NCBI GenBank assembly: GCA_036517655.1
Contig: DATDVE010000019.1
Coordinates: 1-61,078 of the forward strand
Source: Minisyncoccota bacterium
Lineage (GTDB): Bacteria; Patescibacteriota; Minisyncoccia; Phycocordibacterales; DATDSR01
Direction: 5' to 3'
DNA length: 61,078 nt
In this document: positions 4,763 to 43,040 of the stretch, one piece after another
Position numbering within the stretch: position 1 is the first letter of the stretch
How the letters are laid out: each line of letters starts with the position of its first letter
The notes under the pieces: model-generated
What the model was told of the DNA's origin: nothing
Database searches by the model: none
Seen by the model: only the letters and a program-made list of their open reading frames with translations
Position numbers and translations under genes: made by a program

Positions 4763-6340
4763 CTATCTCTTTCTGAAGTACGTGCGCAGGAGCAGTACTA
4801 CTAACGATGTAGAAAGGATTGTGTTATACAAAACCCAAAATTGAATGGTGAGGTAGTTATAGTTTAACGGGTGCAGCTTGCCACTATAGGCCATGAACAT
4901 TATTAGGGCTGTGTAAGCGAGTAGATAGATAATCGCGGAAAAAGTTGCTTGTTTGAACGCCCGCGAGGCACCGGGCTGCTTGCTATTGGTCGCCACACGC
5001 GTGGTATTACTTTTGAAAATAGCAGCAACGATAGAGTGACTGCAACTATAGAGTTGGATGAAGTATGAATAGAACGCTCCCCTGCCGAAGCGCGATATGG
5101 GGAAGGCGAGCATATAGGCGAAGCCCCAAATCATGTACGGCAAGAAGATGATCGCGCCCGCGAGGTTGATGTAGTCGTTATAGAAGAAAAGTGTCCAGAA
5201 AAGTTGGAAAGAAAATAACAAAGTGAGCGGGTGGTGGAAATAATATAAGAAGCCGGTGATGTAGGAGAGCTTAGTCTTCCAGGAGACTTGCGCCTTCCAG
5301 AACTTGCGACCCATGAAAGGGAAGAGACTGCCCGTGCACCAAGTGTGTTGTTGGTGGAAGTAGGCGTGCGGATCGTTGGGGCAAGTGCCGATCCCCAAGA
5401 TCACGGGCACGTAGCGCACTGTCCAGCCGAGGGCTTGGAGATCGAAGCCTGTGTGGGCATCCTCGCTGTGTTCTTGCAAACTCGCGCCGCCAATTTGGGC
5501 AAGCGCTTCGCGTCTATAAATAGCATTCGAGCCGCAGCAAATAGTTGCATCAAGTCTATCGCGAGCCACTTCGATTATACGATAGAAGGCTTCCTGCGAG
5601 TGGGCCGCGCCGTAAGCCAGTGGCTGCTCGCGCTTAATCTTCTTGCCCATGTCGAAGTATTGCGGCGACTGCACAATGCCTATTCTCTTGCCACTGTCAT
5701 CATTGCTAGCATGCTCCATGTAGGGTAGGAGCTCGCGGATAAAGTCAGGATGTGGCGCGCAATCTGCGTCGAGGATTACGATAAACTCGCCCGAGCTCCG
5801 CTCGAAACCGTATCTAATATTACCTGCCTTCTTCATATAGCCTCTGTCTGGTCTGGACAAGTACTCGAAACCATACTGTTTGGCCATAACTTCTTGCTCT
5901 TTGCGTGAATCTTGATCTTTAGTATCGTCGAGCACGTACACTTTTTTATTCACATAGGGCAATGCGGCCACGTGTTGCCAAGTGTTGCGCAGTACACTTA
6001 ATTCTTCGCCGCAGATTGGCAAGAACACGTCAACGGATGGCTCCCCCTTCTTTCCTCCCCCATCTTTTTGGCTGGCCCAAAAGTTTTCTACACAAGCAAA
6101 GTGTTTGGTTAGATCGAAACGCTTGTAGAAAAGATTCTGGATAAAGCTCAAGAGATAATATGCAGAGAAGAAGAGCAGAAGCGGCCCGACGAACCAGCGA
6201 AAGAATAAGTCGTAGCGTATAGCGGGGATGAAGCCATATACAACCAAGAGCCAGGAGACAATGCCGAAAGCGAAAAACACCCGCACGAGCCATGTGGGTG
6301 TTTTTCGGACGTATAAGTATTTATCTATCTGCTCGACCAA
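4763..6340 (-). CDS. Family-2 glycosyltransferase, processive cellulose-synthase-like
   Basis: Motifs VLDD, KKAGNIRYG, ILDADC, SEDAHTG and QQHTWCTG (a QxxRW variant) lie between N- and C-terminal TM bundles. The start overlaps the upstream gene's stop by 16 nt. Confidence 0.85.
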   Translation of the reverse strand: MVEQIDKYLYVRKTPTWLVRVFFAFGIVSWLLVVYGFIPAIRYDLFFRWFVGPLLLFFSAYYLLSFIQNLFYKRFDLTKHFACVENFWASQKDGGGKKGEPSVDVFLPICGEELSVLRNTWQHVAALPYVNKKVYVLDDTKDQDSRKEQEVMAKQYGFEYLSRPDRGYMKKAGNIRYGFERSSGEFIVILDADCAPHPDFIRELLPYMEHASNDDSGKRIGIVQSPQYFDMGKKIKREQPLAYGAAHSQEAFYRIIEVARDRLDATICCGSNAIYRREALAQIGGASLQEHSEDAHTGFDLQALGWTVRYVPVILGIGTCPNDPHAYFHQQHTWCTGSLFPFMGRKFWKAQVSWKTKLSYITGFLYYFHHPLTLLFSFQLFWTLFFYNDYINLAGAIIFLPYMIWGFAYMLAFPISRFGRGAFYSYFIQLYSCSHSIVAAIFKSNTTRVATNSKQPGASRAFKQATFSAIIYLLAYTALIMFMAYSGKLHPLNYNYLTIQFWVLYNTILSTSLVVLLLRTYFRKR

Positions 6341-9300
6341 GGAATGAGTTGCTCGGGAGTGAACATCGGTATATCAAGTGTGATGCCACGTAATCTGCAG
6401 TACTCAATGTTGGCCTTGCGCCTAGTTGTCATGTAGAAGTGACCAGTGGGGCCATTCAAGTTCCAAGGAGTCAACACGTCTGTGGCATTGGTGGTCTGGA
6501 AAGTGTTCACTTGCGAGATTGTGAGCGGACCGTAGAAGCCGGTCATTGGTAGATTAGCGCTCTGGTATTCGTTCAAGAAAGATTGCAGGTTGGTGATAGT
6601 CTCATTGCCGGCAGTGTTACGTCCGCGCATTGCGTACTCGCTGAAGCGAGCAAGGCATGTCTGTGTGTTGCCACTTGAGTCTGTCGAAACACCCAAAACT
6701 TGACCCGCCCCCACCGGACCCACTGCCACTTGCCCTGAGCCCGTCGAAGGGCTCCCCACGGAAATGTAAGCACCCAGAACCGATCCCGAAGGCCCGGTCT
6801 GCGGAGCCGTAGGAGAACTGCCCACAATCTGTCCCCCGCCCCCACCACCGCCAGAACTCGCCGGAGGAGTAACTGGTGCAGGAGTATTATCTGTTGGATC
6901 GCAGGCATCGCCTATGCCGTCACTATCCTTGTCAGCCTGATCTTCGTTAGGAATCAACGGACAGTTATCAGCCGTATCAGCATCGCCGTCGTTGTCATCG
7001 TCATCATCACAAGCATCCCCCATAGCATCGCCATCAGTATTTAGTTGATCAGTATTTTCAACCAGTGGGCAGTTATCGGTTGAATCCAGAATGGTGTCAG
7101 AATCCGTGTCATCACAAACGTCACCCTCTGCATCTTCGTTCATGTTGGCCTGATTGCTGTTGGCATTGATTGGGCAGTTGTCGACCCCATTTAATACCGT
7201 GTCGCCATCCTTATCTGGATCGCAAGCATCGCCTATGCCGTCATCATCGAGGTCAGCCTGGTCGAGATTTGCAATCAAGGGACAATTGTCAGTTTCGTCA
7301 GGGACAGTGTCGTCGTCAGCATCACCATCGTCACATGCATCTCCAACTCCGTTTCCATCAATATCCTCTTGTCCTGGGTTCGAGACAAGCGGACAGTTGT
7401 CTGCATCATCTAGGTCATCGTCGTTGTCGTCATCAGTATCGCATGCATTACCTATTCCGTCCCCATCAGTGTCGAGTTGATCGATATTAGCCACCAGTGG
7501 ACAATTATCTGGAGTATCAAGAACCGTATCATTGTCATCGTCACCGTCACAAGCGTCTCCCGCACCATCACCGTCGGTATCTGTCTGGTCTGCATTCACT
7601 ATCAACGGACAGTTGTCTGCTGTGTCTAAGTCGTCATCATTATCATCGTCATCATCACAGACATCACCCAAACCGTCGCCATCGGTGTCAGTTTGATCGA
7701 GATTGGCAATCAAAGGACAATTGTCAGGTGTATCAAGAACTGTATCATTGTCGTCATCCGGATCGCAGGCGTCGCCTAGTCCATCCCCGTCCGTATCGGT
7801 TTGTTCCGGGTTGGCTACAAACGGGCAGTTATCCGTTGTGTCAAGATCCCCGTCATTATCATCATCGTCGTCGCAGGTATCGCCCATTGTGTCGCCGTCG
7901 TTATTGGCTTGATCAGTATTTGCATTCACTGGGCAGTTATCAGCGTCGTCAAGAATTGTGTCGTTATCATCGTCCGTATCACACTCATCGCCAATCCCAT
8001 CACCGTCGGTGTCAGTTTGATCTGGGTTTGAATTAATGGGACAGTTGTCTGTATCATCACGCACCGTATCATCATCAGTGTCTGGGTCACTCGGATCAGT
8101 TACAGTCTCGTCATCATTCAGCAAAGTATCACCATCCTTGTCTGGATCACACACATCGCCAAGACCGTCGCCATCTATATCTTCTTGCCCAGGGTTATCA
8201 ATTGTAGGACAGTTATCTGCGTCGTTTAGGACGCCGTCATCGTCCAGATCTGTATCAGATGTAACAATGACAGTGCGCGTTACTTGAGTCGCAGCAAGCC
8301 CGTCAGAATCAGACACGTCGTAGGTAATAGTGTACGTACCTTCTGCATTAGTTACTGTGTCGCCACCAACCACAATCGAAGACGTAAGATCGCCATCTTC
8401 CTCGTCAGTAGCTGTAGCACCGGGGTCAGAGAAAGTATCGTCAGTCTCAAGTACTATCGGGTCAGCTCCGATAAGAGTTATCACCGGAGCAGCATTATCG
8501 TCATTTGTTACAGCACAAATTATATCCTGATCTAAGACCAGTGTTCCAGTGTCACAGTCATCTGCGTAGGAAACCGCGTATGTTCCTGGATTGTCCTCAA
8601 CTATTGTGTAGGAGCCCAGCCCAGCAATAGCTACTGTCTGGTCGCTCACAACATCCGAGTGAGTGCCGTCAGCGGCAGTGATGGTGAAGGTAAAACTATC
8701 CGCAGAAGATGTACCACCGTCAGTGTTATCAACTGTCTTGTTTATCGTGATTGTCGGTTTGTATGGTTCGCAGTCAGAGTCATCAAAATCAGTATCTCCG
8801 TCAGTATCGTTATCCGCGCCATCAGTACAAAGTCCACCAGTTTCAGTAGATGGAGGGTTTACAACTATTTCTACGTCAATTGTCTCGTCCCCATCTTGCA
8901 AGAACGAAGCACCACCGCCTGTCTTGAAGCTGTTGTTTTTGTTTGCTTCTGCAATAAAGGTAAACGTACCGCCCGTACTTGCAACTGTTGCCGTAAAGAT
9001 AAATGAAATAGAATCACCCGCATCGATGCCATCGCTACCAGTGTTTAGACTTGCCTCGAGAACCCCGGGCTCACCGAAATCGTCAAGGTCCCATTTCCCG
9101 GCATCTTCGGCGTCACTAAAAGATAAACTCGAAAGACCAGATGTCAGAGTAAATCCGGCAGGAAGGTTTAACCTGATTGCCTTCATTTCATCAGTCGAAC
9201 TTGCTGCGTTCGTGAATGTGACTGTAAATTCCACCTCAGAATCGGCATCTACGATCGTAGGAGAGATCGTAACACTAGCCTCACGCACCGGAGCCCCTGC

Positions 9301-9423
9301 AGCTGTGACATACTCGGTGGTCCAGAAACTTGCTCCTACGGACCAGAGGGCCATGGAAAAGACCAGGGCTAGATGGGTTATTTTTCCCACTGTGCTCTTG
9401 CCTACGTTAAATTTGTCGTACAT
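6325..9423 (-). CDS. Giant surface protein with thrombospondin type-3 repeats, Ig-like domains and a PG-binding-like C-terminal module
   Basis: 1032 aa with an N-terminal anchor/signal. It has a C-x-DG-x-DND-x-DG motif and a DUF5011-like Ig domain (PVITLIGADP..TYTITYDVSDSDG). Twelve NCPxxxNxxQxDxDGDGxGDxCD units and a Gly-rich linker precede the shared C-terminal module. Confidence 0.85.
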   Translation of the reverse strand: MYDKFNVGKSTVGKITHLALVFSMALWSVGASFWTTEYVTAAGAPVREASVTISPTIVDADSEVEFTVTFTNAASSTDEMKAIRLNLPAGFTLTSGLSSLSFSDAEDAGKWDLDDFGEPGVLEASLNTGSDGIDAGDSISFIFTATVASTGGTFTFIAEANKNNSFKTGGGASFLQDGDETIDVEIVVNPPSTETGGLCTDGADNDTDGDTDFDDSDCEPYKPTITINKTVDNTDGGTSSADSFTFTITAADGTHSDVVSDQTVAIAGLGSYTIVEDNPGTYAVSYADDCDTGTLVLDQDIICAVTNDDNAAPVITLIGADPIVLETDDTFSDPGATATDEEDGDLTSSIVVGGDTVTNAEGTYTITYDVSDSDGLAATQVTRTVIVTSDTDLDDDGVLNDADNCPTIDNPGQEDIDGDGLGDVCDPDKDGDTLLNDDETVTDPSDPDTDDDTVRDDTDNCPINSNPDQTDTDGDGIGDECDTDDDNDTILDDADNCPVNANTDQANNDGDTMGDTCDDDDDNDGDLDTTDNCPFVANPEQTDTDGDGLGDACDPDDDNDTVLDTPDNCPLIANLDQTDTDGDGLGDVCDDDDDNDDDLDTADNCPLIVNADQTDTDGDGAGDACDGDDDNDTVLDTPDNCPLVANIDQLDTDGDGIGNACDTDDDNDDDLDDADNCPLVSNPGQEDIDGNGVGDACDDGDADDDTVPDETDNCPLIANLDQADLDDDGIGDACDPDKDGDTVLNGVDNCPINANSNQANMNEDAEGDVCDDTDSDTILDSTDNCPLVENTDQLNTDGDAMGDACDDDDDNDGDADTADNCPLIPNEDQADKDSDGIGDACDPTDNTPAPVTPPASSGGGGGGGQIVGSSPTAPQTGPSGSVLGAYISVGSPSTGSGQVAVGPVGAGQVLGVSTDSSGNTQTCLARFSEYAMRGRNTAGNETITNLQSFLNEYQSANLPMTGFYGPLTISQVNTFQTTNATDVLTPWNLNGPTGHFYMTTRRKANIEYCRLRGITLDIPMFTPEQLIPWSSR
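6897..8245 (-). repeat. Tandem in-frame array of 12 TSP3-type Ca-binding repeats (~108 nt each)
   Basis: Repeated NCP(L/I)..N.DQ.DTDGDG.GDACD.DDDND units are visible in the translation. The shadow ORFs on the plus strand are artefacts of this array. Confidence 0.8.
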
Positions 9424-9561: not shown

Positions 9562-10341
9562 CTACTCCAGTGCAAGCAGGATCGCCATCAGGGCGAAGCC
9601 TGTGATGATTGCGATTAATTGAATTAGAGATTTGCGGGCACTACTTGTTTTTTGTAATTCTGGCACTAAGTCAGAGGCGGCTATGTAGAGGAAGCCGCCG
9701 GCGGTTATAGGTAGGATAAGTTCTATCAAGCCCTCACTGTTGCCCTTCAAGGCCACGACAATAAGAAGGCCGGCGAATGAGGCAAGGGCAGAGAGGAAGT
9801 TGAGAAAGAGCGCTCTTGCTCGCGAGAAGCCGACGTGCAGGAGTAACCCAAAATCCCCGATTTCCTGCGGGATCTCGTGGAGTATCACAGCAATCGTTGT
9901 AGCGATGCCAACTTCGGTGCTCACTAGATACGCACCACCAATCACGATGCCATCTATTAGGTTGTGCAAGCCGTCAGAGATAATGTTCATGTAGCCGATG
10001 TGCTGATTGGCATGACCGGAGTCAATCTCCACGCCCACTTCATGCACTTCGCCCTCGTGGCCGTGGTGCCAGCGCAGGAACTTCTCAAGAACGAAAAAGA
10101 TTAAAAAGCCCACGAAGATAAGTGAGGTGATCTTGGGCGTCACCTCTAATTCTGGCAGAATATGCAGGAAGACGTCACCCAAGAGTGCTCCCACAGAGAG
10201 GCTAATTAGGGCAAACAAGACCTTGCGCAACCTGATTACGTTGAGAGAAATGGTGAAGAGGCCAACGAGGGATATGAGGCTAACTATTAGTATGGATAGA
10301 GCGGCTAGCCAGAGCATGCCACTATGATATACTAAATTCAT
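9562..10341 (-). CDS. ZIP-family divalent metal transporter
   Basis: Multi-TM protein with a His-rich loop (HHGHEGEVHEVG) and the ZIP signature HEIPQEIGDFGLLL. Confidence 0.85.
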   Translation of the reverse strand: MNLVYHSGMLWLAALSILIVSLISLVGLFTISLNVIRLRKVLFALISLSVGALLGDVFLHILPELEVTPKITSLIFVGFLIFFVLEKFLRWHHGHEGEVHEVGVEIDSGHANQHIGYMNIISDGLHNLIDGIVIGGAYLVSTEVGIATTIAVILHEIPQEIGDFGLLLHVGFSRARALFLNFLSALASFAGLLIVVALKGNSEGLIELILPITAGGFLYIAASDLVPELQKTSSARKSLIQLIAIITGFALMAILLALE

Positions 10342-23585: not shown

Positions 23586-24233
23586 TTATTCCTCAAGTAA
23601 TAAATTTTTGAGCTCTTCATAATCAGCTCTTTTTGATTTCATATGTACGAGATTTTCTTGGGAAAAATCTTCGTACTCCTGCTTATTTTTAAACTGCGCT
23701 AGGATAATATCCTTCTTGCACATGTTGCCTGTATCGCTAATATATTCATCCCAGCTCGACCGTACAAGTTTATTTAATTCACCTGACAGATTATGAACTT
23801 TATTATTCAGATTTATGTAACTACTTAGGTGCAACAGATGCTCATTACTTTCTATATGTTTTACCTTAAACTGACCTTCGAACAGAGAGCCTGTCCTGTG
23901 ATGCTTGAGATTAAAGTAGTTCGCGTAGCCACCCAACCTTTTCATGAACTTACTTATACCATCATCTTTAAGAGGAGATAGCAGGAAGTGGAAGTGATTG
24001 GGATTTAAGCAATAACAAACTATGTCAACTAGTCTTTTTCTAGGTTTTATTCTCTCTGCCTCACTTAGTCTTGCGTGCTCAAAAATACTCCAAACAGGAT
24101 CCTCAGAGTTATAGAGATCCAAACCAAGAATAAACCTCTCGGAGTCTGCCTTATCCATAACAATTTGACGATGATCCACGCCACGATTATAAACATGGTA
24201 AAACTCACCTTGAGCAAAACTGATCTTTCTCAT
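23586..24233 (-). CDS. REP-associated tyrosine transposase (RAYT, IS200/IS605 Y1 transposase-like, COG1943)
   Basis: YHVYNRGVDHRQIV, the HUH motif CLNPNHFHFLLSP, GSLFEGQFK, and the catalytic-Tyr region SSYINLNNKVH. It is flanked by the palindrome. Confidence 0.8.
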   Translation of the reverse strand: MRKISFAQGEFYHVYNRGVDHRQIVMDKADSERFILGLDLYNSEDPVWSIFEHARLSEAERIKPRKRLVDIVCYCLNPNHFHFLLSPLKDDGISKFMKRLGGYANYFNLKHHRTGSLFEGQFKVKHIESNEHLLHLSSYINLNNKVHNLSGELNKLVRSSWDEYISDTGNMCKKDIILAQFKNKQEYEDFSQENLVHMKSKRADYEELKNLLLEE

Positions 24234-26245: not shown

Positions 26246-28294
26246 ATGCAAAGGAATTCAGGCAACAAGCGGCGAGAGTTTGGCGGCAAGAGCAAAAATC
26301 ACGGCGATCGCCGTAATTTTAAACATGACAAACTTCACAAGCGCCAAGTACCAAACAAGAACCAAAACGTGCAAACTTCCAAGCGAGAAATAGAGGGCGT
26401 GATCAAACTTGCGGGACGCAAGGGTGGTTTCGTCTTGCCCGAGGGGTACACCGACGAGGTCAGAATTGATCCGGCATTCTTGGGCACTGCTCTGCATAAC
26501 GACGAGGTCAGGGTACTGCTTCATAAACCCCACTTCGCCAAGGCTTCGCGGGGCGGTGAGCAGGAGCTCACCGGTGAAGTTATCAAGATTCTCACTCGAG
26601 CCAAAAGTCGCTTCGTTGGCACGATTGCAAATGGCAAATTTGTGCCCGATGATCGCAGATTCTATCTGGAAGTAGAGCTTGCCAAAGAGGGGGGGGCTGA
26701 GGCGGCTGACCAGAAGGTCTTAGTTGAGATCACCGATTGGCATAGCTTCCCCATTCGTGGGAGAGTGGTAGAAATATTGGGCAAGCAGGGCGAGCATGAG
26801 ACAGAGATGCTCTCGATCCTGGCAGCCACTGGCATCGTCTATGACTTCCCCACTCTAGTCGAAGCAGAAGCGAAAGAGGTGGCGGCCCGTCTTCGCCAAG
26901 GCTTCGACGAGGTGAGACGTGATATGAGAAGCACGCTGACCTTCACCATCGATCCCGCAAGTGCTAAAGATTTTGACGATGCGCTCTCGTTTAAAGAATT
27001 TGGCAGTGGGAAATACGAGATAGGGGTACACATTGCTGACGTCTCGCACTTCGTCAGGCCTGGAACAAAGCTAGATGATGAAGCGAGGCGCCGGGCAAAT
27101 AGCGTATACATGGTGGATCGCACGGTACCAATGCTACCGGAAGTTTTGTCTGCTGATATTTGCTCTCTGGTACCCAATCAAGACAGACTCACATATTCCG
27201 CGATCTTCGTTATAGATAAGACTGGCAAGGTAGAGAGTGAGTGGTTTGGCCGCACTATTATCCACTCGCAGAGGAGATTTACTTACGAAGAGGCAGCCAA
27301 GATTCTGAAGGATAAATCAGGTCAATATGCCGAAGAACTCATGATACTCAATGAGATCGCCCAGAATCTTCATAAAGAGCGGGTACGCAAGGGTTCAGTG
27401 ATCTTTGAGAAAGACGAGATCAAGGTCGAGCTAGATGCACAAAGCAAACCGGTGCGCATATATGTCAAAGAGCGATTAGCAACCCACAAGCTAATCGAGG
27501 AGTTCATGCTCCTCGCCAACAAGCATGTTGCCCGTTACCTGTATCTGGGAGTTGGGAAATTAGGTGGGGCGGCAGTGTACCGAATTCATGATGTACCGGA
27601 CAAGGATCGCATAGTACTGGTTAAATCATTTCTCAAATCTTTGGGATACAAGTTTGAGGGAGACCCGAAAAAGTTTGGCGCCCGTGAGATCAACGAACTT
27701 TTCGCCCAGATCAAGGGCGAGGATATCGAGATGCTGGTGCAGACGGCAGTCTTGCGCTCGATGGCCAAGGCCATTTACTCCACTCGCAATATTGGCCACT
27801 TCGGACTTGGCTTCGAGTTCTACACCCACTTCACCTCGCCGATCCGCAGATACCCAGATGTGCTGGTCCACAGACTCTTGACAAAATATCTTTCGGGTAA
27901 GCCCATAGAGAAGAGCGAGGTCATAGAGTTCGAGCGAATCGCACGCTACTCAAGTGAGCGCGAGCGCGAGGCTGAAGCGGCAGAGCGCGAGAGCGTCAAG
28001 TACAAACAAGTTGAGTACATGCTCTCCCTTAAGGAGAAAGACCCGACAAGACTATACGACGGCACAATTGTGGGGGTCACAGAGTGGGGCATCTTCGTCG
28101 AAGAGCAAAGTGCGAAGTCAGAAGGCATGCTACGCCTTTCTAGTTTGGGGGATGATTATTACGAATTCGATGAGAAAAAATTTGCCATCATAGGTAAGCG
28201 TACCAAAAAAGTTTACAGATTAGGAGATAAAATAAAAGTAAAATTACTAGAAGTAGACGTCCCCCGCCATCAAATCACCTGGGAACTGGTATAA
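26246..28294 (+). CDS. rnr: Ribonuclease R (RNB family 3'-5' exoribonuclease)
   Basis: RNB motifs DPASAKDFDDALS and HFGLGFEFYTHFTSPIRRYPD, with a C-terminal S1 domain. Confidence 0.9.
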   Translation: MQRNSGNKRREFGGKSKNHGDRRNFKHDKLHKRQVPNKNQNVQTSKREIEGVIKLAGRKGGFVLPEGYTDEVRIDPAFLGTALHNDEVRVLLHKPHFAKASRGGEQELTGEVIKILTRAKSRFVGTIANGKFVPDDRRFYLEVELAKEGGAEAADQKVLVEITDWHSFPIRGRVVEILGKQGEHETEMLSILAATGIVYDFPTLVEAEAKEVAARLRQGFDEVRRDMRSTLTFTIDPASAKDFDDALSFKEFGSGKYEIGVHIADVSHFVRPGTKLDDEARRRANSVYMVDRTVPMLPEVLSADICSLVPNQDRLTYSAIFVIDKTGKVESEWFGRTIIHSQRRFTYEEAAKILKDKSGQYAEELMILNEIAQNLHKERVRKGSVIFEKDEIKVELDAQSKPVRIYVKERLATHKLIEEFMLLANKHVARYLYLGVGKLGGAAVYRIHDVPDKDRIVLVKSFLKSLGYKFEGDPKKFGAREINELFAQIKGEDIEMLVQTAVLRSMAKAIYSTRNIGHFGLGFEFYTHFTSPIRRYPDVLVHRLLTKYLSGKPIEKSEVIEFERIARYSSEREREAEAAERESVKYKQVEYMLSLKEKDPTRLYDGTIVGVTEWGIFVEEQSAKSEGMLRLSSLGDDYYEFDEKKFAIIGKRTKKVYRLGDKIKVKLLEVDVPRHQITWELV

Positions 28295-28297
28295 TAA

Positions 28298-30343
28298 TTA
28301 TTTAGCGTAACTTACTGCGTCGTCGAATCTGATTGATAGCAATTTCGAGATGCCATCGGCTGACATTGTCACTCCATATAAGACACTCGCGTGACTCATG
28401 GTCTCGCGGTTATGGGTTACAACTATTAGCTGCGATTTGTCAGATAGTTTTGTTAGCATTTCACCGTACTTGCGAGCATTTGTCTCATCGAGAGCTGCGT
28501 CTGTTTCGTCAAGTACTAAGAAGGGCGGCGGATTAACTTGGCTCATGGCAAATAAGAGCGCTATTGAGGTGAGCGCTCGCTCGCCTCCAGAGAGCATTTC
28601 TAGGCCTCTAATCTTCTTGCGCGGAAGATTAACATCTATATCAATCCCCCACTCACTCTCTATTTCCTCGCCGGCCTCGTCTACGCCCCCACCAATTTTG
28701 ACTACGCCGACAGAGGCACTACCGCCGCCAAAGAGAGTCGCGAAGAAACTGTTAAACTCTTTGTTTACAAGATTCAAACCCTCTTTAAACTTCACCTCAA
28801 GTGTTTCGGTCAGCTCTTTCATTAAATTTTTCAGCGAGTTTGCGCTCTTATCAAGATCTTCTAGCTCGCGTGTTAAATGCTCATCGCGGGCACGTGTATC
28901 TTCGTATTCTTTAATCACATCCGAGCCCACCCCGCCAGCATCTTCGATCCTAATCTTGAGTCGCTCTATTTTTTTGCGCAAATCATGCTGCTGCTCACGC
29001 GTTACAGAAACCAGGTTTCCAGACTCTCCTGAAACCTGGTTTCGGGAATCGGCGAGGATATTCACTCCGGTGAGAAGGGCGATCTCGTGAGCATCTCGGG
29101 CGAAGACTTCGTGTTCTATCTTATGCCCAGCCTCTCGCAAACTTACTTTTTCAACCTCTGCCCTAAGTGTTGACTCACGGGCGCGCAATTCATAAGAGAC
29201 TTTTTCTTCTTCACGTAGAGTGTCTAATTCGCGCGTCTCTTCTTTTTCTTGTGTGATTAAATCCTGAATCTTCTGTTCAAGTTCAGATTTCTCTTTCAGC
29301 CAGTGACTCGAATCTGACCCTAAGGGCTCCCCTTGGGTAACTCCAAGGGGAGCCCTTGGAGTTCGGGTGATTACTTGCCCGCAATATCTGCATCTCTCTT
29401 CGCCACGCTCGTCTACTCTCACAAGCTCAACTCGCTTGCCTGCTTCGATCTTACCTTCTAGCCTGCCAATTAATCTAGACAGCTCATCTTTTTCATTTCT
29501 CAACTTACTAAGGCTCTCTGTGAGCTCATGGATTCTAGGGCTACGACCAACTTTCGCAAGCTCCTTTTCTATTAATGCCAGATCGTGCTTAACCTCATGC
29601 AAGTCAGCACTAATCGCTTCTTTCAAATTATCAAGATAGATCTTCTCGTTTGCAAAATACTCACTCGATAAGTTAGCTAACTCAGCTTTTTGCAAAGCTA
29701 ATTTCTCTACTTCTTCCACTTGCTTTTTTAGGAACTTAAGATGCGGGGCAATCTCGCGTCTAAGCGACTCGACTTGTTTAATATTCTCACTTGTCTTCTC
29801 TAGTCTCTTGTCGCTTTCGCTTAATTTGTACTGATAAATTTTTAGTCCCAGTGCATCTTCTAGAATCTCGCGTCGCTCTTTGGGGTTTGCAGAGAGCACG
29901 TGATCTGCCTCGCCTTGGCTAATTATGTGATGCCCTGATGGACCTAAACTCACGGCACTAAGTAGTTCTATAACGTCTCGCAACCTTACCTGCGAATTAT
30001 TAATAGAATAAATATTTTGGCCGTCTCTGTGGACTTCGCGTTCTACTATCACTTCGCTGAACTCAATGGGCAATTTTTTATCAGCATTATCAAAGACGAG
30101 TACAACAGATGCTCTGTTTAATCTGCCCGAACTACCCGCGCCATTAAAGATCAGATCTTCACCGCGTTTACCACGCAAACTTTTCATGCTTTGCTCACCC
30201 ACTACCCAGCGCAAAGCCTCAGCCACATTACTCTTGCCCGAGCCGTTCGGCCCAACAATAGCCGTAATAGGCGCATCGAACTCAAGCGAAGTCTTCTTGG
30301 CAAAACTTTTGAACCCAGTTATTTCTATCCTCTTTAATCTCAC
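28298..30343 (-). CDS. smc: SMC-family ATPase, short hinge-less form (681 aa) with a central CxxC
   Basis: N-terminal head (M)RLKRIEITGFKSFA..GPNGSGKSNVAEALRWVVGEQS and C-terminal head LSGGERALTSIALLFA..FLVLDETDAALD. Only ~400 aa of coiled coil lie between them, with CRYC at the midpoint. GTG 30343 is the preferred start. Confidence 0.8.
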   Translation of the reverse strand: MRLKRIEITGFKSFAKKTSLEFDAPITAIVGPNGSGKSNVAEALRWVVGEQSMKSLRGKRGEDLIFNGAGSSGRLNRASVVLVFDNADKKLPIEFSEVIVEREVHRDGQNIYSINNSQVRLRDVIELLSAVSLGPSGHHIISQGEADHVLSANPKERREILEDALGLKIYQYKLSESDKRLEKTSENIKQVESLRREIAPHLKFLKKQVEEVEKLALQKAELANLSSEYFANEKIYLDNLKEAISADLHEVKHDLALIEKELAKVGRSPRIHELTESLSKLRNEKDELSRLIGRLEGKIEAGKRVELVRVDERGEERCRYCGQVITRTPRAPLGVTQGEPLGSDSSHWLKEKSELEQKIQDLITQEKEETRELDTLREEEKVSYELRARESTLRAEVEKVSLREAGHKIEHEVFARDAHEIALLTGVNILADSRNQVSGESGNLVSVTREQQHDLRKKIERLKIRIEDAGGVGSDVIKEYEDTRARDEHLTRELEDLDKSANSLKNLMKELTETLEVKFKEGLNLVNKEFNSFFATLFGGGSASVGVVKIGGGVDEAGEEIESEWGIDIDVNLPRKKIRGLEMLSGGERALTSIALLFAMSQVNPPPFLVLDETDAALDETNARKYGEMLTKLSDKSQLIVVTHNRETMSHASVLYGVTMSADGISKLLSIRFDDAVSYAK

Positions 30344-30352
30344 ATTTATATG

Positions 30353-30417
30353 GTACCAACTCACCCGGACTTTGTCTCGCCCTCTCTTATCTATAAGAGA
30401 GGGTTGGGGTGAGTTAT
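30353..30417 (-). promoter_or_regulatory. 65-bp structured repeat, copy 1 (promoter/operator module upstream of smc)
   Basis: About 94% identical to 34113..34176. It contains the palindrome CCCTCTCTTAT-ct-ATAAGAGAGGG (30380-30403) nested in AACTCACCC/GGGTGAGTT arms. The minus strand has GAGACA, 17 nt, TACCAT, 6 nt, GTG. Confidence 0.6.
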
Positions 30418-31100
30418 TAGTAAAAAGATGCGAGGGCAGCTTTGGCGGCTTCTGTTTCAGCTTCTTGCTTGCTCATTCCTGTGCCCTTGCCAATTAACTT
30501 TGTATTCAAATAAACTCCCACAGTAAATGTCTTGGCGTGGTCAGGGCCAACTTCTTTGATCGTTTTATACACTGGCGTTATTCCCTCGCTATCTTGAGCT
30601 TTTTCTTGCAACACACTCTTGGGATCTTGCCAGAGACTCTTCTCTACCACTTCATCTGCTTTCTCAAGGAGCACTTTCTTGAGGAACTCACCAGCAGATT
30701 TGTAATCACCATCAAGATAAATCGCGCCCACAAGCGCCTCAAACGTATTAGCCAAGATCACAGCGCGAGCTCTGCCAGTATCCTTAGCCTCACCCTTCGA
30801 CAGCAACAAGTATGCACCCAAGCCGAGCACCCCGGCCACTTTCGAAAGGCTCACAGTGTTAACAAGGGCCGCACGCACACTTGTAAGTTCCCCTTCTGTC
30901 TTACCGGGATACTTGTTGTATAAATATTCTGTGCACACAAGCTCGAGCACAGCGTCACCCAAGAATTCTAATCTCTCGTTGTGCGGCAACTTAAAGCTCT
31001 TGTTCTCATTTAGGTAAGAACGATGAGTGAGGGCCTGGGTTAGCAGATCCTTATCTTTGAAATTATGCCTTATCAGTTTCTCCAGATTCTCTGATTGCAT
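30417..31100 (-). CDS. rnc: Ribonuclease III
   Basis: Signature ERLEFLGDAVLELV plus a C-terminal dsRBD (GPDHAKTFTV..GKGTGMSKQEAE). Confidence 0.93.
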   Translation of the reverse strand: MQSENLEKLIRHNFKDKDLLTQALTHRSYLNENKSFKLPHNERLEFLGDAVLELVCTEYLYNKYPGKTEGELTSVRAALVNTVSLSKVAGVLGLGAYLLLSKGEAKDTGRARAVILANTFEALVGAIYLDGDYKSAGEFLKKVLLEKADEVVEKSLWQDPKSVLQEKAQDSEGITPVYKTIKEVGPDHAKTFTVGVYLNTKLIGKGTGMSKQEAETEAAKAALASFY

Positions 31101-32016
31101 GTAATGTCTCTATTCCCTTATCAATAATGGGCCGAACGTCGGGATACATTTTCAACCCCTCGACTTCGCTTAAATTAAACCACTTGACTTGATCTAGCCC
31201 GCCACTGCCTTCGGGCAACTTGATACTAGCAGGATTCTTGGCCCGCGCAAGGAAGTAGGTCACTTGCTTCCTCATATTGCCAATCTCCGGATCCGTGGCT
31301 ACGTACTCGTTCACTCCTATCAACTTCTTAGTCTCTATTTCAAGATTCATCTCCTCTTTGATCTCGCGCACAACTCCCGTCTCCTCGTTCTCGCTGCCTT
31401 CCACACCACCCTTACTAAGCGTCCAGTAGCCGAAGACATCGTGCACGAAAGCAAGCATCTCGTTGCCTTTCTTGTCTCTACAATACACCACGGCACCCAC
31501 TAACTTTTTATGCGGCAGTAATTCTTTCTCTTCTTTAGTTAGATCTTCTTTCTTCTTGTACTTGCGTTTCTTCTTGGGCAATTCGTCCTTGCCCGGCTCA
31601 CCCATCTCTTTATAAATAGTGCCTAAAACGCCATTTATAAATTTCCCACTACGTTCCCCACCAAAACTTTTTGCAAGTTCGATTGCCTCGTTAATTGCCA
31701 CGCGCGCTGGCACTTCTTCTTTCTTGGCAAAGAGCAGCTCATATAAGCCTACGCGCAAAACATTCCTATCAACTAAGGGTGTTTGGAGTAGCGGCCAGTC
31801 GCGTGCGGCTTTAGTAATTATCTCGTCCAGAGTTCCTCTCGTCTTTATAACTCCCCTAGTTAGTTTAACTATGAAATCCTTCTCCGCTCCGTCTTCTCCA
31901 AATTCGTTGATGTTACGTGCCAGGATGTCGTCAATCTTATCTTTCTTGCCATCATAAAAATCCCACTCAAATAGTGATTGTAACGCAATCCCGCGTGAGA
32001 CGTGTCTCTTGGCCAT
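31063..32016 (-). CDS. nusB: NusB antitermination factor fused to a C-terminal NUDIX hydrolase domain
   Basis: Residues 1-140 are NusB-like (RGIALQSLFEWDF, RVAINEAIELAKSFGGERSGKFINGVLG). A KKKRKYKKKED linker follows, then the Nudix box GGVEGSENEETGVVREIKEEMNL. Confidence 0.8.
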   Translation of the reverse strand: MAKRHVSRGIALQSLFEWDFYDGKKDKIDDILARNINEFGEDGAEKDFIVKLTRGVIKTRGTLDEIITKAARDWPLLQTPLVDRNVLRVGLYELLFAKKEEVPARVAINEAIELAKSFGGERSGKFINGVLGTIYKEMGEPGKDELPKKKRKYKKKEDLTKEEKELLPHKKLVGAVVYCRDKKGNEMLAFVHDVFGYWTLSKGGVEGSENEETGVVREIKEEMNLEIETKKLIGVNEYVATDPEIGNMRKQVTYFLARAKNPASIKLPEGSGGLDQVKWFNLSEVEGLKMYPDVRPIIDKGIETLHAIRESGETDKA

Positions 32017-42674: not shown

Positions 42675-42715
42675 GGCCCCGGGGAACCCCTCACCCCGCG
42701 GGCCTTTCGTTTTTT
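42675..42715 (+). terminator. Intrinsic terminator after 42429..42668
   Basis: GGCCCCGGGG pairs with CCCCGCGGGCC, followed by TTTCGTTTTTT. Confidence 0.6.
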
Positions 42716-43040
42716 ACAAATTAAGAAATTGCTTCATCTGTGCATCTAGCGTCTGAAGTACTGAACGATCAATTGAACCTACAAATTTAGACAATCGTTT
42801 TGTTGAAATAACTCTAATCTGAAATACGAGCGCGACAGAGGTCAGAGAAAGTCCATTACGTTTATTGGGTTCGACAAGTAAGGTAAAGGGGAACCTCAAC
42901 GCATCCTCATTTGACGTACACGGGACCACAACCACTGTTCCTGAAATATTAGAACTATAAACAATCGCCGGCCTTGCGCCAGCTTGTTCATGACCAGTAG
43001 TGTTTGGGAAATCGACCAAATATATCTCCCCTTTTCTCAT
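42714..43040 (-). CDS. mazF: MazF/PemK-family type II toxin endoribonuclease
   Basis: MRKGEIYLVDFPNTTGHEQAGARPAIV...VVPCTS...SVALVFQIRVISTKRL. Confidence 0.85.
   Translation of the reverse strand: MRKGEIYLVDFPNTTGHEQAGARPAIVYSSNISGTVVVVPCTSNEDALRFPFTLLVEPNKRNGLSLTSVALVFQIRVISTKRLSKFVGSIDRSVLQTLDAQMKQFLNL

Follow-up and report, generated by a model that had tools for sequence, protein, structure and literature searches.

The smc gene and its conserved neighbourhood

The window (the whole stretch of DNA analyzed, 61,078 nucleotides) contains an uninterrupted minus-strand ORF at positions 28298..30364 that encodes a short Smc-like protein, here called mini-Smc. The ORF encodes 688 aa when read from the first in-frame GTG (30364), which sets the residue numbers used below, and 681 aa when read from the GTG at 30343. 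Translation from the second GTG gives the N-terminus VRLKRIEI, which fits the homologues' N-terminal consensus MxLKRLE, and GTG 30343 is therefore probably the true start. Directly upstream of smc on the same strand is rnc, encoding RNase III (30417..31100), which is preceded by a NusB-NUDIX fusion gene (31063..32016, also minus strand) to form a nusB-rnc-smc block. On the other side the locus is bounded by the convergent RNase R gene, rnr (26246..28294, plus strand). Linkage of rnc and smc is classical, and mini-smc occupies this orthologous smc position: among 78 related loci, rnc is kept in 67, the NusB-NUDIX gene in 68 and rnr in 62. All of the neighbors are housekeeping genes (nusB, rnc, rnr, rpsP, trmD, dnaE, and rnhB), and the block is kept in 60 to 68 of the 78 genomes. 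The flanks are tight, with 53 nt to rnc upstream and 3 nt between the smc and rnr stop codons. With smc packed so closely between rnc and rnr, the locus leaves no space in which a lost hinge could lie.

A first-pass annotation, made from the DNA sequence alone, had described a 681-aa protein with no scpA or scpB adjacent, and our results agree on both points. No Pfam match to ScpA or ScpB was found among the scanned ORFs of plausible size, a search confined to the 61-kb window. Neither was found in 80 related genomes at a distance of up to 10 kb from smc, with inspection covering the conserved neighbor clusters and ten rarer clusters. For the genome as a whole, the lack of a neighboring scpAB says little. 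These same clusters from the 80 loci contain no Mre11/SbcD gene, and none adjoins mini-smc. Within 10 kb of the gene for one homologue (P0046), which lies on a 430-kb contig, there is neither ScpAB nor SbcCD.

A bacterial Smc head on short arms

The N-terminal half of the ATPase head (residues 8 to 174; 29843..30343, minus strand) is 46% identical to the N-terminal head of Bacillus subtilis Smc (5h67_A). It carries the Walker A motif GPNGSGKS (residues 38 to 45; 30230..30253, minus strand), the RWVVGEQS motif, and the Q-loop SQGE (residues 149 to 152). The C-terminal half (residues 546 to 688 plus the stop codon; 28298..28729, minus strand) carries the signature LSGGE (residues 591 to 595; 28580..28594, minus strand), the Walker B/D-loop LVLDETDAALD (residues 616 to 626; 28487..28519, minus strand), and the H-loop VTHN (residues 649 to 652). 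This is a bipartite Smc-type ABC-ATPase head from which none of these elements is missing, and it includes every motif that the first-pass annotation had quoted for SMC-type head halves. A single Pfam SMC_N match covers residues 10 to 673 (E = 3.2e-69).

The SMC_prok_B model (TIGR02168) gives mini-Smc 546.7 bits, which is just under its curated cut-off of 567.35 because the middle of the protein is missing. Other models give far lower scores: 70.1 bits for RecN (TIGR00634; cut-off, 407.85), at most 55 bits for Rad50 models (cut-offs, 700 to 1087), 28.5 bits for SbcC (cut-off, 478.5), and 51.6 bits for the archaeal ASRP model NF045487 (cut-off, 300). The best sequence matches in the PDB are the B. 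subtilis and Geobacillus Smc heads (E = 5e-96 to 7e-84), while Rad50 matches are far weaker (E = 1e-12 or worse). The top Foldseek matches of the mini-Smc model are Smc head/joint structures, the first being 5xei ("Smc head with coiled coil and joint"). Membership in the Rad50/SbcC, RecN, ASRP, or MukB family is ruled out by the head scores, and the earlier affiliation of the head with Smc, not with SbcC/Rad50 or RecN, is borne out. Judged by its sequence, we conclude that mini-Smc is the Smc orthologue of this genome, with a bacterial Smc head and the complete ATPase motif set. Family members carry the NCBI name "AAA family ATPase," and this name, together with scores under the cut-off, means that surveys may wrongly count Paceibacteria as lacking Smc.

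In the AlphaFold2 monomer model (mean pLDDT, 80.8), the head bears an antiparallel intramolecular coiled-coil arm less than half the canonical length. The N-terminal arm helix comprises residues 175 to 307 (29444..29842, minus strand) with a kink at residues 272 to 276. The C-terminal arm helix comprises residues 352 to 545 (28730..29311, minus strand), with a joint-like loop at residues 433 to 455 (29000..29068) and a break at residues 477 to 479. Such an arm, with a joint-like discontinuity, is another likeness to B. subtilis-type Smc, as is the position of the gene directly downstream of rnc. However, the arm has only ~133 helical residues (~160 to 180 aa by the measure of Burmann et al., PMC5344682), compared with 344 aa in canonical Smc. 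Its length would be ~20 nm, which is less than half of the ~47 nm of B. subtilis Smc, and the central ~550 residues of canonical Smc (the hinge and distal arms) are missing. By the same measure, natural Smc arm lengths have a minor mode at ~163 aa, and engineered B. subtilis Smc arms shorter than ~253 aa have not been reported to be functional. Arm length is tightly kept: the distance from head anchor to the first Cys of the apex has a median of 164 (range, 147 to 173), and that from the second Cys to head anchor has a median of 205 (range, 191 to 219).

The place of the hinge is taken by a non-helical apex of only 44 residues (residues 308 to 351; 29312..29443, minus strand; pLDDT, 38 to 63). 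It is modeled as a short β-hairpin bearing a CxxC motif, followed by a Pro/Gly-rich, low-confidence linker (residues 336 to 351; 29312..29359) that differs in length among homologues. Mini-Smc has no match to SMC_hinge (PF06470) in Pfam even at E ≤ 1, and no hinge was found in any homologue checked. Mini-Smc is thus an Smc without a hinge domain, and both this and the location of the CxxC at the predicted coiled-coil apex are as the first-pass annotation had proposed.

The apex motif and its relatives

The apex string ERCRYCGQVITRTPRAPLGVTQGEPLG (residues 323 to 349) contains C325 (29390..29392) and C328 (29381..29383), both on the minus strand. They lie in a putative zinc-hook motif, C325-R-Y-C328-G-Q330 (CRYCGQ; 29375..29392, minus strand), that aligns with CPVCG of Pyrococcus furiosus Rad50. 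In both sequence and position, this is a CxxC at the apex of the Rad50/SbcC type and a putative zinc site. Among the 64 proteins of the window's clade, the two Cys and the Gln of C-x-[YF]-C-G-Q are invariant (64/64), the Tyr is present in 57, and the Gly is present in 56. The clade consensus is G-[ED]-[KR]-x-C-x-Y-C-G-Q-x-[IV]. Exactly two Cys, both in the motif, are found in 51 of the 64, and the frequency of Cys elsewhere is 0.04%, which places the motif beyond chance. Overall identity in the clade is 49 to 77%, and the apex region apart from the CxxC is only 37% conserved. Near the motif, the clade alignment shows no further conserved His, Cys, or Asp that could act as a third or fourth ligand. 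With two conserved potential ligands per chain, a four-ligand zinc site would need a dimer.

When the apex profile of this clade was compared with the PDB, the best natural matches were the P. furiosus Rad50 hook structures 1L8D and 6ZFF, at a marginal E value of 0.03, with the CxxC in register and the flanking coils aligned. A second flavor of the motif, GRCP[LTM]CG[SRN], occurs in a clade that includes Nomurabacteria-labeled genomes. Its profile matches the Rad50 hook, also marginally (E = 0.022), and other zinc knuckles too. The likeness to the Rad50/SbcC hook therefore consists of a coil-CxxC-coil apex, two Cys per chain, a profile match in register and, in many family members, an identical local C-P-x-C-G. 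The differences are that the head is that of Smc, that there is no Mre11/SbcD partner gene, and that the window's flavor includes, in C-x-Y-C-G-Q, a conserved Tyr and Gln, along with an additional β-hairpin of 10 to 15 residues ahead of the Cys. A GR[LI]EG motif (GRLEG in mini-Smc, residues 300 to 304; 29453..29467, minus strand) marks the distal end of the N-terminal arm. It is common to the hook-type apex, where its first Gly is invariant, and to the Cys-less apex described below, where its last Gly is invariant in the alignment.

Homologues of like length number in the hundreds and come from NCBI, JGI, ENA, and Logan. The 120 listed database matches are 670 to 769 aa, with one exception of 942 aa; the best 150 representatives of 50%-identity clusters are 643 to 782 aa, except for one 357-aa fragment; and 76 intact smc ORFs from 80 GTDB species genomes (taken from among the matches listed, leaving out the closest species genomes, at >51% identity) encode 711 to 840 aa. 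The relatives examined in these three sets are all Paceibacteria-type. Based on these comparisons of sequence, we conclude that the lack of a hinge characterizes the Paceibacteria Smc family as a whole.

The first-pass annotation had proposed conservation of the CxxC as a check on its reading, and the reading survives this check, as it does those on the head type and on an assembly or frameshift artifact: the motif is kept throughout the window's clade. A qualification is that ~140 of the best 150 cluster representatives have a Cys-less helical cap in place of the hook. The Cys-less forms have an extra two-helix insert of ~45 aa that is absent from hook forms. The possibility that the Cys-less apex is a degenerate hinge was rejected, as its profile matched only designed helical bundles in the PDB. 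Given this Cys-less majority, the hook is one of at least two replacement solutions and not the rule. The Cys-less relatives also imply that the hook is not required for the function of the family and that dimerization could rest partly on the arms.

In neighbor-joining trees of heads and arms (apex masked, without a canonical Smc outgroup), two clades of hook-type proteins were supported at 84% and 95%, and hook monophyly was recovered in 0 of 100 bootstraps, a result obtained with a weak method. A single origin of the hook was provisionally rejected on this basis. We tentatively suggest, as a possibility about which we have considerable doubt, that the hinge and ~200 residues per arm were lost once in Paceibacteria and that unrelated tip modules then repeatedly took their place. 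Most lineages would have the Cys-less two-helix cap, whereas zinc hooks (C-x-Y-C-G-Q and the SbcC/Rad50-like G-R-C-P-x-C-G) would have arisen or been acquired on more than one occasion. If this is true, nature treats the dimerization module of a loop-extruding SMC as an exchangeable cassette, a whole bacterial class can maintain its chromosomes with a 20-nm Smc that has neither hinge nor elbow, and Paceibacteria Smc may work with a non-canonical kleisin or with none.

A putative zinc hook for dimerization

The best explanation of these observations, to which we assign a probability of roughly 0.7, is that a Zn(Cys)4 hook dimerizes a naturally miniaturized, hinge-less Smc with arms of ~20 nm. 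Mini-Smc would be the ATPase core of a bacterial condensin that organizes and segregates the chromosome. Each chain would fold back on itself, so that the N- and C-terminal halves build a canonical Smc ABC-ATPase head and ~133 helical residues per strand form the antiparallel arm of ~20 nm. At the tip of the arm, in the place of the hinge, a small knuckle would present C325-x-x-C328, and the two Cys from each of two chains would form one tetrahedral Zn(Cys)4 site, giving a constitutive tip-to-tip homodimer as in Rad50/SbcC. As in other Smc proteins, ATP would govern the engagement and disengagement of the heads. We infer zinc binding, the 2:1 stoichiometry, hook-mediated dimerization, and joint action with a kleisin (ScpAB) in DNA entrapment or loop extrusion. 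There is experimental precedent for such an arrangement: B. subtilis grows normally with an Smc that carries the zinc hook of P. furiosus Rad50 instead of its hinge (PMC5344682), and the Rad50 hook and the SMC hinge are interchangeable in yeast (PMC6969161). Several observations weigh against the explanation: the likeness to the Rad50 hook is marginal (E of ~0.02 to 0.03) and shared with generic zinc knuckles, the apex is modeled with low confidence, most of the family has no Cys, ScpA and ScpB were not found in the 61-kb window or the 80 related loci, and the arm is shorter than the engineered B. subtilis arms reported to be functional.

It is also conceivable, at clearly lower odds, that the CxxC caps the hairpin within a single chain as a structural or redox element, either a disulfide or a metal site with non-Cys ligands, and that dimers form by arm zipping or by ATP-dependent head engagement alone. 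To judge from the Cys-less relatives, the family can do without a hook, GR[LI]EG could be the real tip contact since it is present in both apex types, and the AlphaFold2 monomer places the Cys in a small β-hairpin. However, the motif offers no additional conserved ligand for an intrachain site, a stable CxxC disulfide is unlikely in the cytoplasm, and the motif and its coil-CxxC-coil setting fit an intermolecular hook. Moreover, restriction of the ~45-aa insert to Cys-less forms suggests that each type needs a dedicated tip module.

Considerably less probable is that the protein is a Rad50/SbcC-like or RecN-like repair ATPase or a defense SMC such as Lamassu LmuB, and not a condensin Smc. Proteins of this kind share the apex hook, the short arms, and the absence of a hinge, and PADLOC returned generic matches to mad3 (219 bits) and LmuB (116 bits). 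The LmuB score is far under the Smc score, the scores of the head point overwhelmingly to Smc, neither Mre11/SbcD nor an effector gene adjoins, and the conserved housekeeping block is unlike a mobile defense island; a defense-system SMC was rejected on the basis of this synteny. There is practically no chance that an assembly error, a frameshift, or decay into a pseudogene has shortened a normal smc, a reading favored by the unusual length of the gene and nothing else, given the intact ORF, the tight flanks, the same protein encoded on an independent ENA contig (P0001), the like-length homologues, and the retention of all ATPase motifs.

The hinge is regarded as a defining part of SMC proteins, one that serves in dimerization and DNA binding and as a possible DNA gate. 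Laboratory chimeras have suggested that its fold is dispensable. With a hook-dimerized mini-Smc, the family would be nature's own hinge-replacement experiment, performed across a very large class of bacteria, with two or three tip modules at the least and arms that fall short of half the usual length. It would give the SMC field a compact, naturally optimized minimal Smc for structural and single-molecule work, as well as a way to ask if a hinge, an elbow, or a set arm length is necessary for loop extrusion or chromosome loading. It would also connect the architectures of Smc and Rad50 in evolution. Our search of the literature, which took in few of the subscription journals, turned up no account of a zinc hook in a natural bacterial Smc.

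The mini-Smc of this Patescibacteria (CPR) genome would be a natural counterpart of the laboratory-built Smc-hook chimera. The Smc(Zh) chimera and Mini-Smc constructs of Burmann et al. 2017 (PMC5344682) have a hook for the hinge on an Smc head and arm, and shortened arms, and the chimera is functional in vivo. In contrast to mini-Smc, which is natural, widespread, and shorter-armed, they are artificial, carry a transplanted archaeal hook, and have functional arms of at least 253 aa. The archaeal ASRP proteins (ClsN/coalescin and Sph1/2; NF045487; PMC9389158) are also SMC-superfamily proteins, of ~600 aa, with a zinc-hook motif for the hinge and an implied role in chromosome organization, but they are archaea-specific and form a family separate from Smc, whereas mini-Smc is a bacterial Smc orthologue by sequence. 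A cluster of hinge-less SMC proteins from marine Actinobacteria-like genomes (Sussfeld et al. 2025, PMC12153180) shares the SMC-type heads, the coiled coil, the lack of a hinge, and an origin in uncultured bacteria. By its description it is set apart from the Patescibacteria family, a subset of which bears the hook, since it is explicitly without CXXC and branches with Actinobacteria.

Heads and arms of mini-Smc

The smc open reading frame (ORF; 28298..30364, minus strand) is a single unbroken frame of 688 aa counted from its earliest in-frame GTG. Starting at GTG 30343 (VRLKRIEI...) gives a 681-aa protein that agrees, in the alignment, with the homologue consensus N terminus MxLKRLE, and this is probably the true start. 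Every sequence motif quoted in the first-pass annotation is found in the ORF, and the half-length product, mini-Smc, has a Walker A (GPNGSGKS, residues 38 to 45), a Q-loop (SQGE, 149 to 152), a signature motif (LSGGE, 591 to 595), a Walker B/D-loop (LVLDETDAALD, 616 to 626), and an H-loop (VTHN, 649 to 652).

The heads had been called SMC type, and the profile searches agree. SMC_N (Pfam) gives one match (residues 10 to 673, 3.2e-69). The top NCBIfam model is TIGR02168, the bacterial Smc equivalog, at 546.7 bits versus a cut-off of 567.35, and its best stretch aligns residues 9 to 308 with model positions 1 to 299 of 1181. This is far above the scores for RecN (70 bits), Rad50 models (≤55 bits), archaeal ASRP (52 bits), and SbcC (28 bits), which rule out membership in Rad50/SbcC and ASRP. 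In a PDB sequence search, B. subtilis and Geobacillus Smc heads lead (E 5e-96 to 7e-84), and Rad50 heads score no better than 1e-12. AlphaFold2, run with 64 homologues, gives a model with a canonical predicted head (mean pLDDT of the model, 80.8). Foldseek ranks 5xei, the P. yayanosii Smc head with coiled coil and joint, first (E 4e-26), ahead of further Smc, cohesin, and condensin heads. By sequence and predicted fold, which agree, the heads are those of bacterial Smc.

There is no Pfam match to SMC_hinge even at E≤1, and the model has a nonhelical apex of only 44 residues (308 to 351), in which the Cys residues lie on a short beta-hairpin followed by a low-confidence Pro/Gly linker; the hinge is absent, as had been claimed. 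The predicted N-arm helix spans residues 175 to 307 (kink at 272 to 276) and the C-arm residues 352 to 545 (loop at 433 to 455). According to TIGR02168 and PDB alignments, ~550 central residues of canonical Smc are missing, which comprise the hinge and ~200 residues per arm. By our own calculation, antiparallel pairing of the two arm helices would give ~133 helical residues per strand, or ~20 nm; the B. subtilis Smc arm is 344 aa, ~47 nm (PMC5344682). Natural Smc arm lengths are multimodal, with modes recurring every ~91 to 99 aa and perhaps a minor one at 163 aa (Burmann et al., PMC5344682). By the measure of those authors (head to dimerisation module, mean of the two sides), the mini-Smc arms are approximately 160 to 180 aa, about two periods below B. 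subtilis in what is an approximate comparison.

Mini-Smc is an Smc orthologue without the hinge that serves as a criterion for Smc. Its homologues are labelled "AAA family ATPase" by NCBI, and this name, together with the TIGR02168 shortfall, may lead gene-content surveys to score Smc wrongly as absent.

The best 120 matches in a 5.8-billion-protein database are 670 to 769 aa long, save one of 942 aa; none has a precomputed hinge domain, and the named organisms among them are Paceibacterota, Parcubacteria, or Patescibacteria MAGs. An exhaustive HMMER search over 1.84 billion cluster representatives gave the same picture, with the representatives of the best 150 clusters (50% identity) being 643 to 782 aa, bar one fragment. 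When each GTDB species was represented by one genome, the smc ORFs of the 80 loci among the matches listed were 711 to 840 aa and, where the genomes are named, came from Vogel-, Nomura-, Kaiser-, Yonath-, Taylor-, Zambryski-, Lloyd-, Adler-, and Wolfebacteria as well as genomes named Paceibacterota and Minisyncoccia. Hinge-lessness is a trait of the whole family. A frameshift or assembly deletion is excluded by the intact ORF and by homologues of like length; the smc DNA in the window is complete, with no sequence lost. The sole long outlier among the close homologues listed, P0020 (942 aa), has its surplus sequence in or after the N-terminal head and has neither hinge nor CxxC.

The apex motif and its Cys-less counterparts

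C-x-x-C is found at the aligned apex position in 63 of the 120 closest homologues. Across these 63 and the window protein (49 to 77% identity overall), C325 (29390..29392), C328 (29381..29383; both minus strand, within ERCRYCGQVITRTPRAPLGVTQGEPLG), and Q330 are invariant, in a local consensus of G-[ED]-[KR]-x-C-[RPK]-Y-C-G-Q-x-[IV], while mean conservation of the 77-residue apex segment around the motif is just 37%. Exactly two Cys, both of them motif residues, are present in 51 of the 64 proteins, and beyond the motif Cys makes up 0.04% of residues. The distance from head anchor to motif is 147 to 173 residues on the N side (median, 164), and that from motif to head anchor is 191 to 219 on the C side (median, 205). 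The CxxC is conserved in window-type proteins, but not across the family, most members of which are Cys-less.

The best natural matches of the window-type apex profile among all PDB sequences are the P. furiosus Rad50 zinc hook (1L8D, E 0.031; 6ZFF, E 0.055), with KCPVCGREL over kCryCGQvI and the flanking coils also aligned. A second flavour of hook, [SA]-G-R-C-P-[LTM]-C-G-[SRN]-x-[IL], is placed straight between two helices in five species genomes among the loci listed, two of them labelled Nomurabacteria (L033, 3903-6059; L053, 10001-12142; L055, 8155-10299; L059, 10001-12136; L071, 9950-12118). Its local string is that of the SbcC/Rad50 hook, to which it is nearer than is the window's C-x-Y-C-G-Q. 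The Nomurabacteria-type profile matches the LysW zinc ribbon (E 0.016), the Rad50 hook (E 0.022), and further zinc knuckles in the PDB. The apex motif appears to resemble a zinc knuckle in a hook setting, with marginal E-values that do not imply homology to the Rad50 hook.

After the hook, the Pro/Gly-rich linker TRTPRAPLGVTQGEPLGSDSS (29312-29359, minus strand) is encoded by alternating 7-mers (CCAAGGG/CCCTTGG) that could fold into two overlapping hairpins, of 11 and 8 bp, and that give the peptide repeat PLG...PLG. This insert is missing or altered in most homologues and appears to be the product of local slippage or of palindrome expansion, which a disordered loop would tolerate.

Only a minority of the family bears a hook, and most of its proteins lack Cys altogether: among the first 120 matches 57 are Cys-less, as are ~140 of the best 150 cluster representatives. 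In an alignment of this type (P0072 and 54 others), a single Cys occurs in 15 proteins and none in the other 40; L006 (10019-12250) is an example of the type. Their apex has ~40 to 45 extra residues in place of hinge or hook, which in P0072 are predicted, with modest confidence, to be two short helices (328 to 346 and 351 to 371). The insert has no hinge match in Pfam, and the PDB matches of its profile are all designed helical bundles. Common to both apex types is a GR[LI]EG motif in the N-arm, at its distal end just ahead of the apex (29453-29467, minus strand), each alignment having one invariant Gly. The family provides minimal forms of Smc that occur in nature, and their tip modules are of at least two or three kinds.

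In neighbour-joining trees of heads and arms (apex masked), the window's hook clade has 14 members (84% bootstrap) and another has 10 (95%). The Nomurabacteria-type group (42%) lies apart from the window's clade, and hook-bearing proteins form one clade in 0 of 100 replicates. Neighbour joining being crude and the aberrant P0020 the sole outgroup, these trees do not tell repeated gain of the hook from its repeated loss or from poor resolution.

A proposed zinc hook as dimerisation module

The best-supported reading, from sequence and from analogy with Rad50, is that the hook would form one Zn(Cys)4 site making a constitutive tip-to-tip homodimer, because each chain has only two conserved metal ligands, at the point of chain reversal, and Cys is otherwise purged. 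The two Cys of each chain would contribute to one shared site joining two tips, and the zinc hook would substitute for the hinge in an otherwise ordinary Smc ATPase. In Rad50, two Cys come from each chain at the zinc hook (Hopfner 2002, as cited in PMC5344682). A B. subtilis Smc carrying the P. furiosus hook instead of its hinge "supported normal growth," from which its authors drew the conclusion that chromosome segregation does not depend on how the dimerisation domain is folded (PMC5344682); the reverse swap is functional in yeast Rad50 (PMC6969161). The existence of Cys-less relatives is consistent with the CxxC being an intrachain cap or redox element in a dimer formed by other means, which we consider unlikely.

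Mini-Smc resembles Rad50/SbcC at the tip, without being a member by NCBIfam scores, and resembles the engineered B. subtilis constructs Smc(Zh) and Mini-Smc (with a zinc hook in the hinge's place and shortened arms) in overall design. Archaeal ASRP/ClsN proteins are short, SMC-related, and have zinc hooks (PMC9389158), but mini-Smc is not one of them. The one earlier report of hinge-less SMCs concerns a marine Actinobacteria-like cluster (PMC12153180), for which the CXXC motif is stated to be absent. In the literature searched, coverage of which was incomplete, we found neither the Paceibacteria mini-Smc family nor any naturally occurring bacterial Smc with a zinc hook described. The sequence-level case for a hook-bearing mini-Smc is strong, and the roles of hinge and arm length are still under debate in SMC research.

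Gene order and neighbours

In the window, rnc ends 53 nt before smc, its downstream partner, and the RNase R gene is convergent with smc, their stop codons being 3 nt apart. In 62 to 68 of 78 listed loci, nusB(-NUDIX), rnc, and smc stand in this order ahead of a convergent rnr, just as in the window; rnc-smc is the classical Smc position in B. subtilis. We conclude that mini-Smc is this class's own Smc, passed on by vertical inheritance. The Smc heads and housekeeping synteny make a repair or defence protein very improbable, and the PADLOC matches (mad3, 219 bits; LmuB, 116 bits) reflect generic SMC-head similarity.

ScpA and ScpB were not found among the scanned ORFs of the 61-kb window, in keeping with the earlier observation that neither gene is adjacent, nor among the neighbour clusters (the conserved ones and ten rarer ones) inspected up to 10 kb from smc in 80 listed genomes, nor beside P0046, a homologue on a 430-kb contig. 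The scpAB genes are frequently unlinked to smc.

The nusB product is a fusion of NusB with a C-terminal NUDIX hydrolase (31063-32016, minus strand), and a protein of the same size class precedes rnc-smc in 68 of 78 related genomes listed. Elsewhere in the window, all on the minus strand, are an IS200-like/REP-associated tyrosine-transposase-like protein between rpoB and a NUDIX gene (23586-24233; Y1_Tnp, E 5e-6), a MazF/PemK-type toxin gene between gyrB and pheS (42714-43040; E 4e-25), and a 1032-aa, probable surface protein with eight thrombospondin type-3 repeats and a bacterial Ig-like domain (6325-9423), followed by a family-2 glycosyltransferase. A ZIP-family zinc transporter gene (9562-10341, minus strand) lies ~18 kb from the hook-bearing smc.
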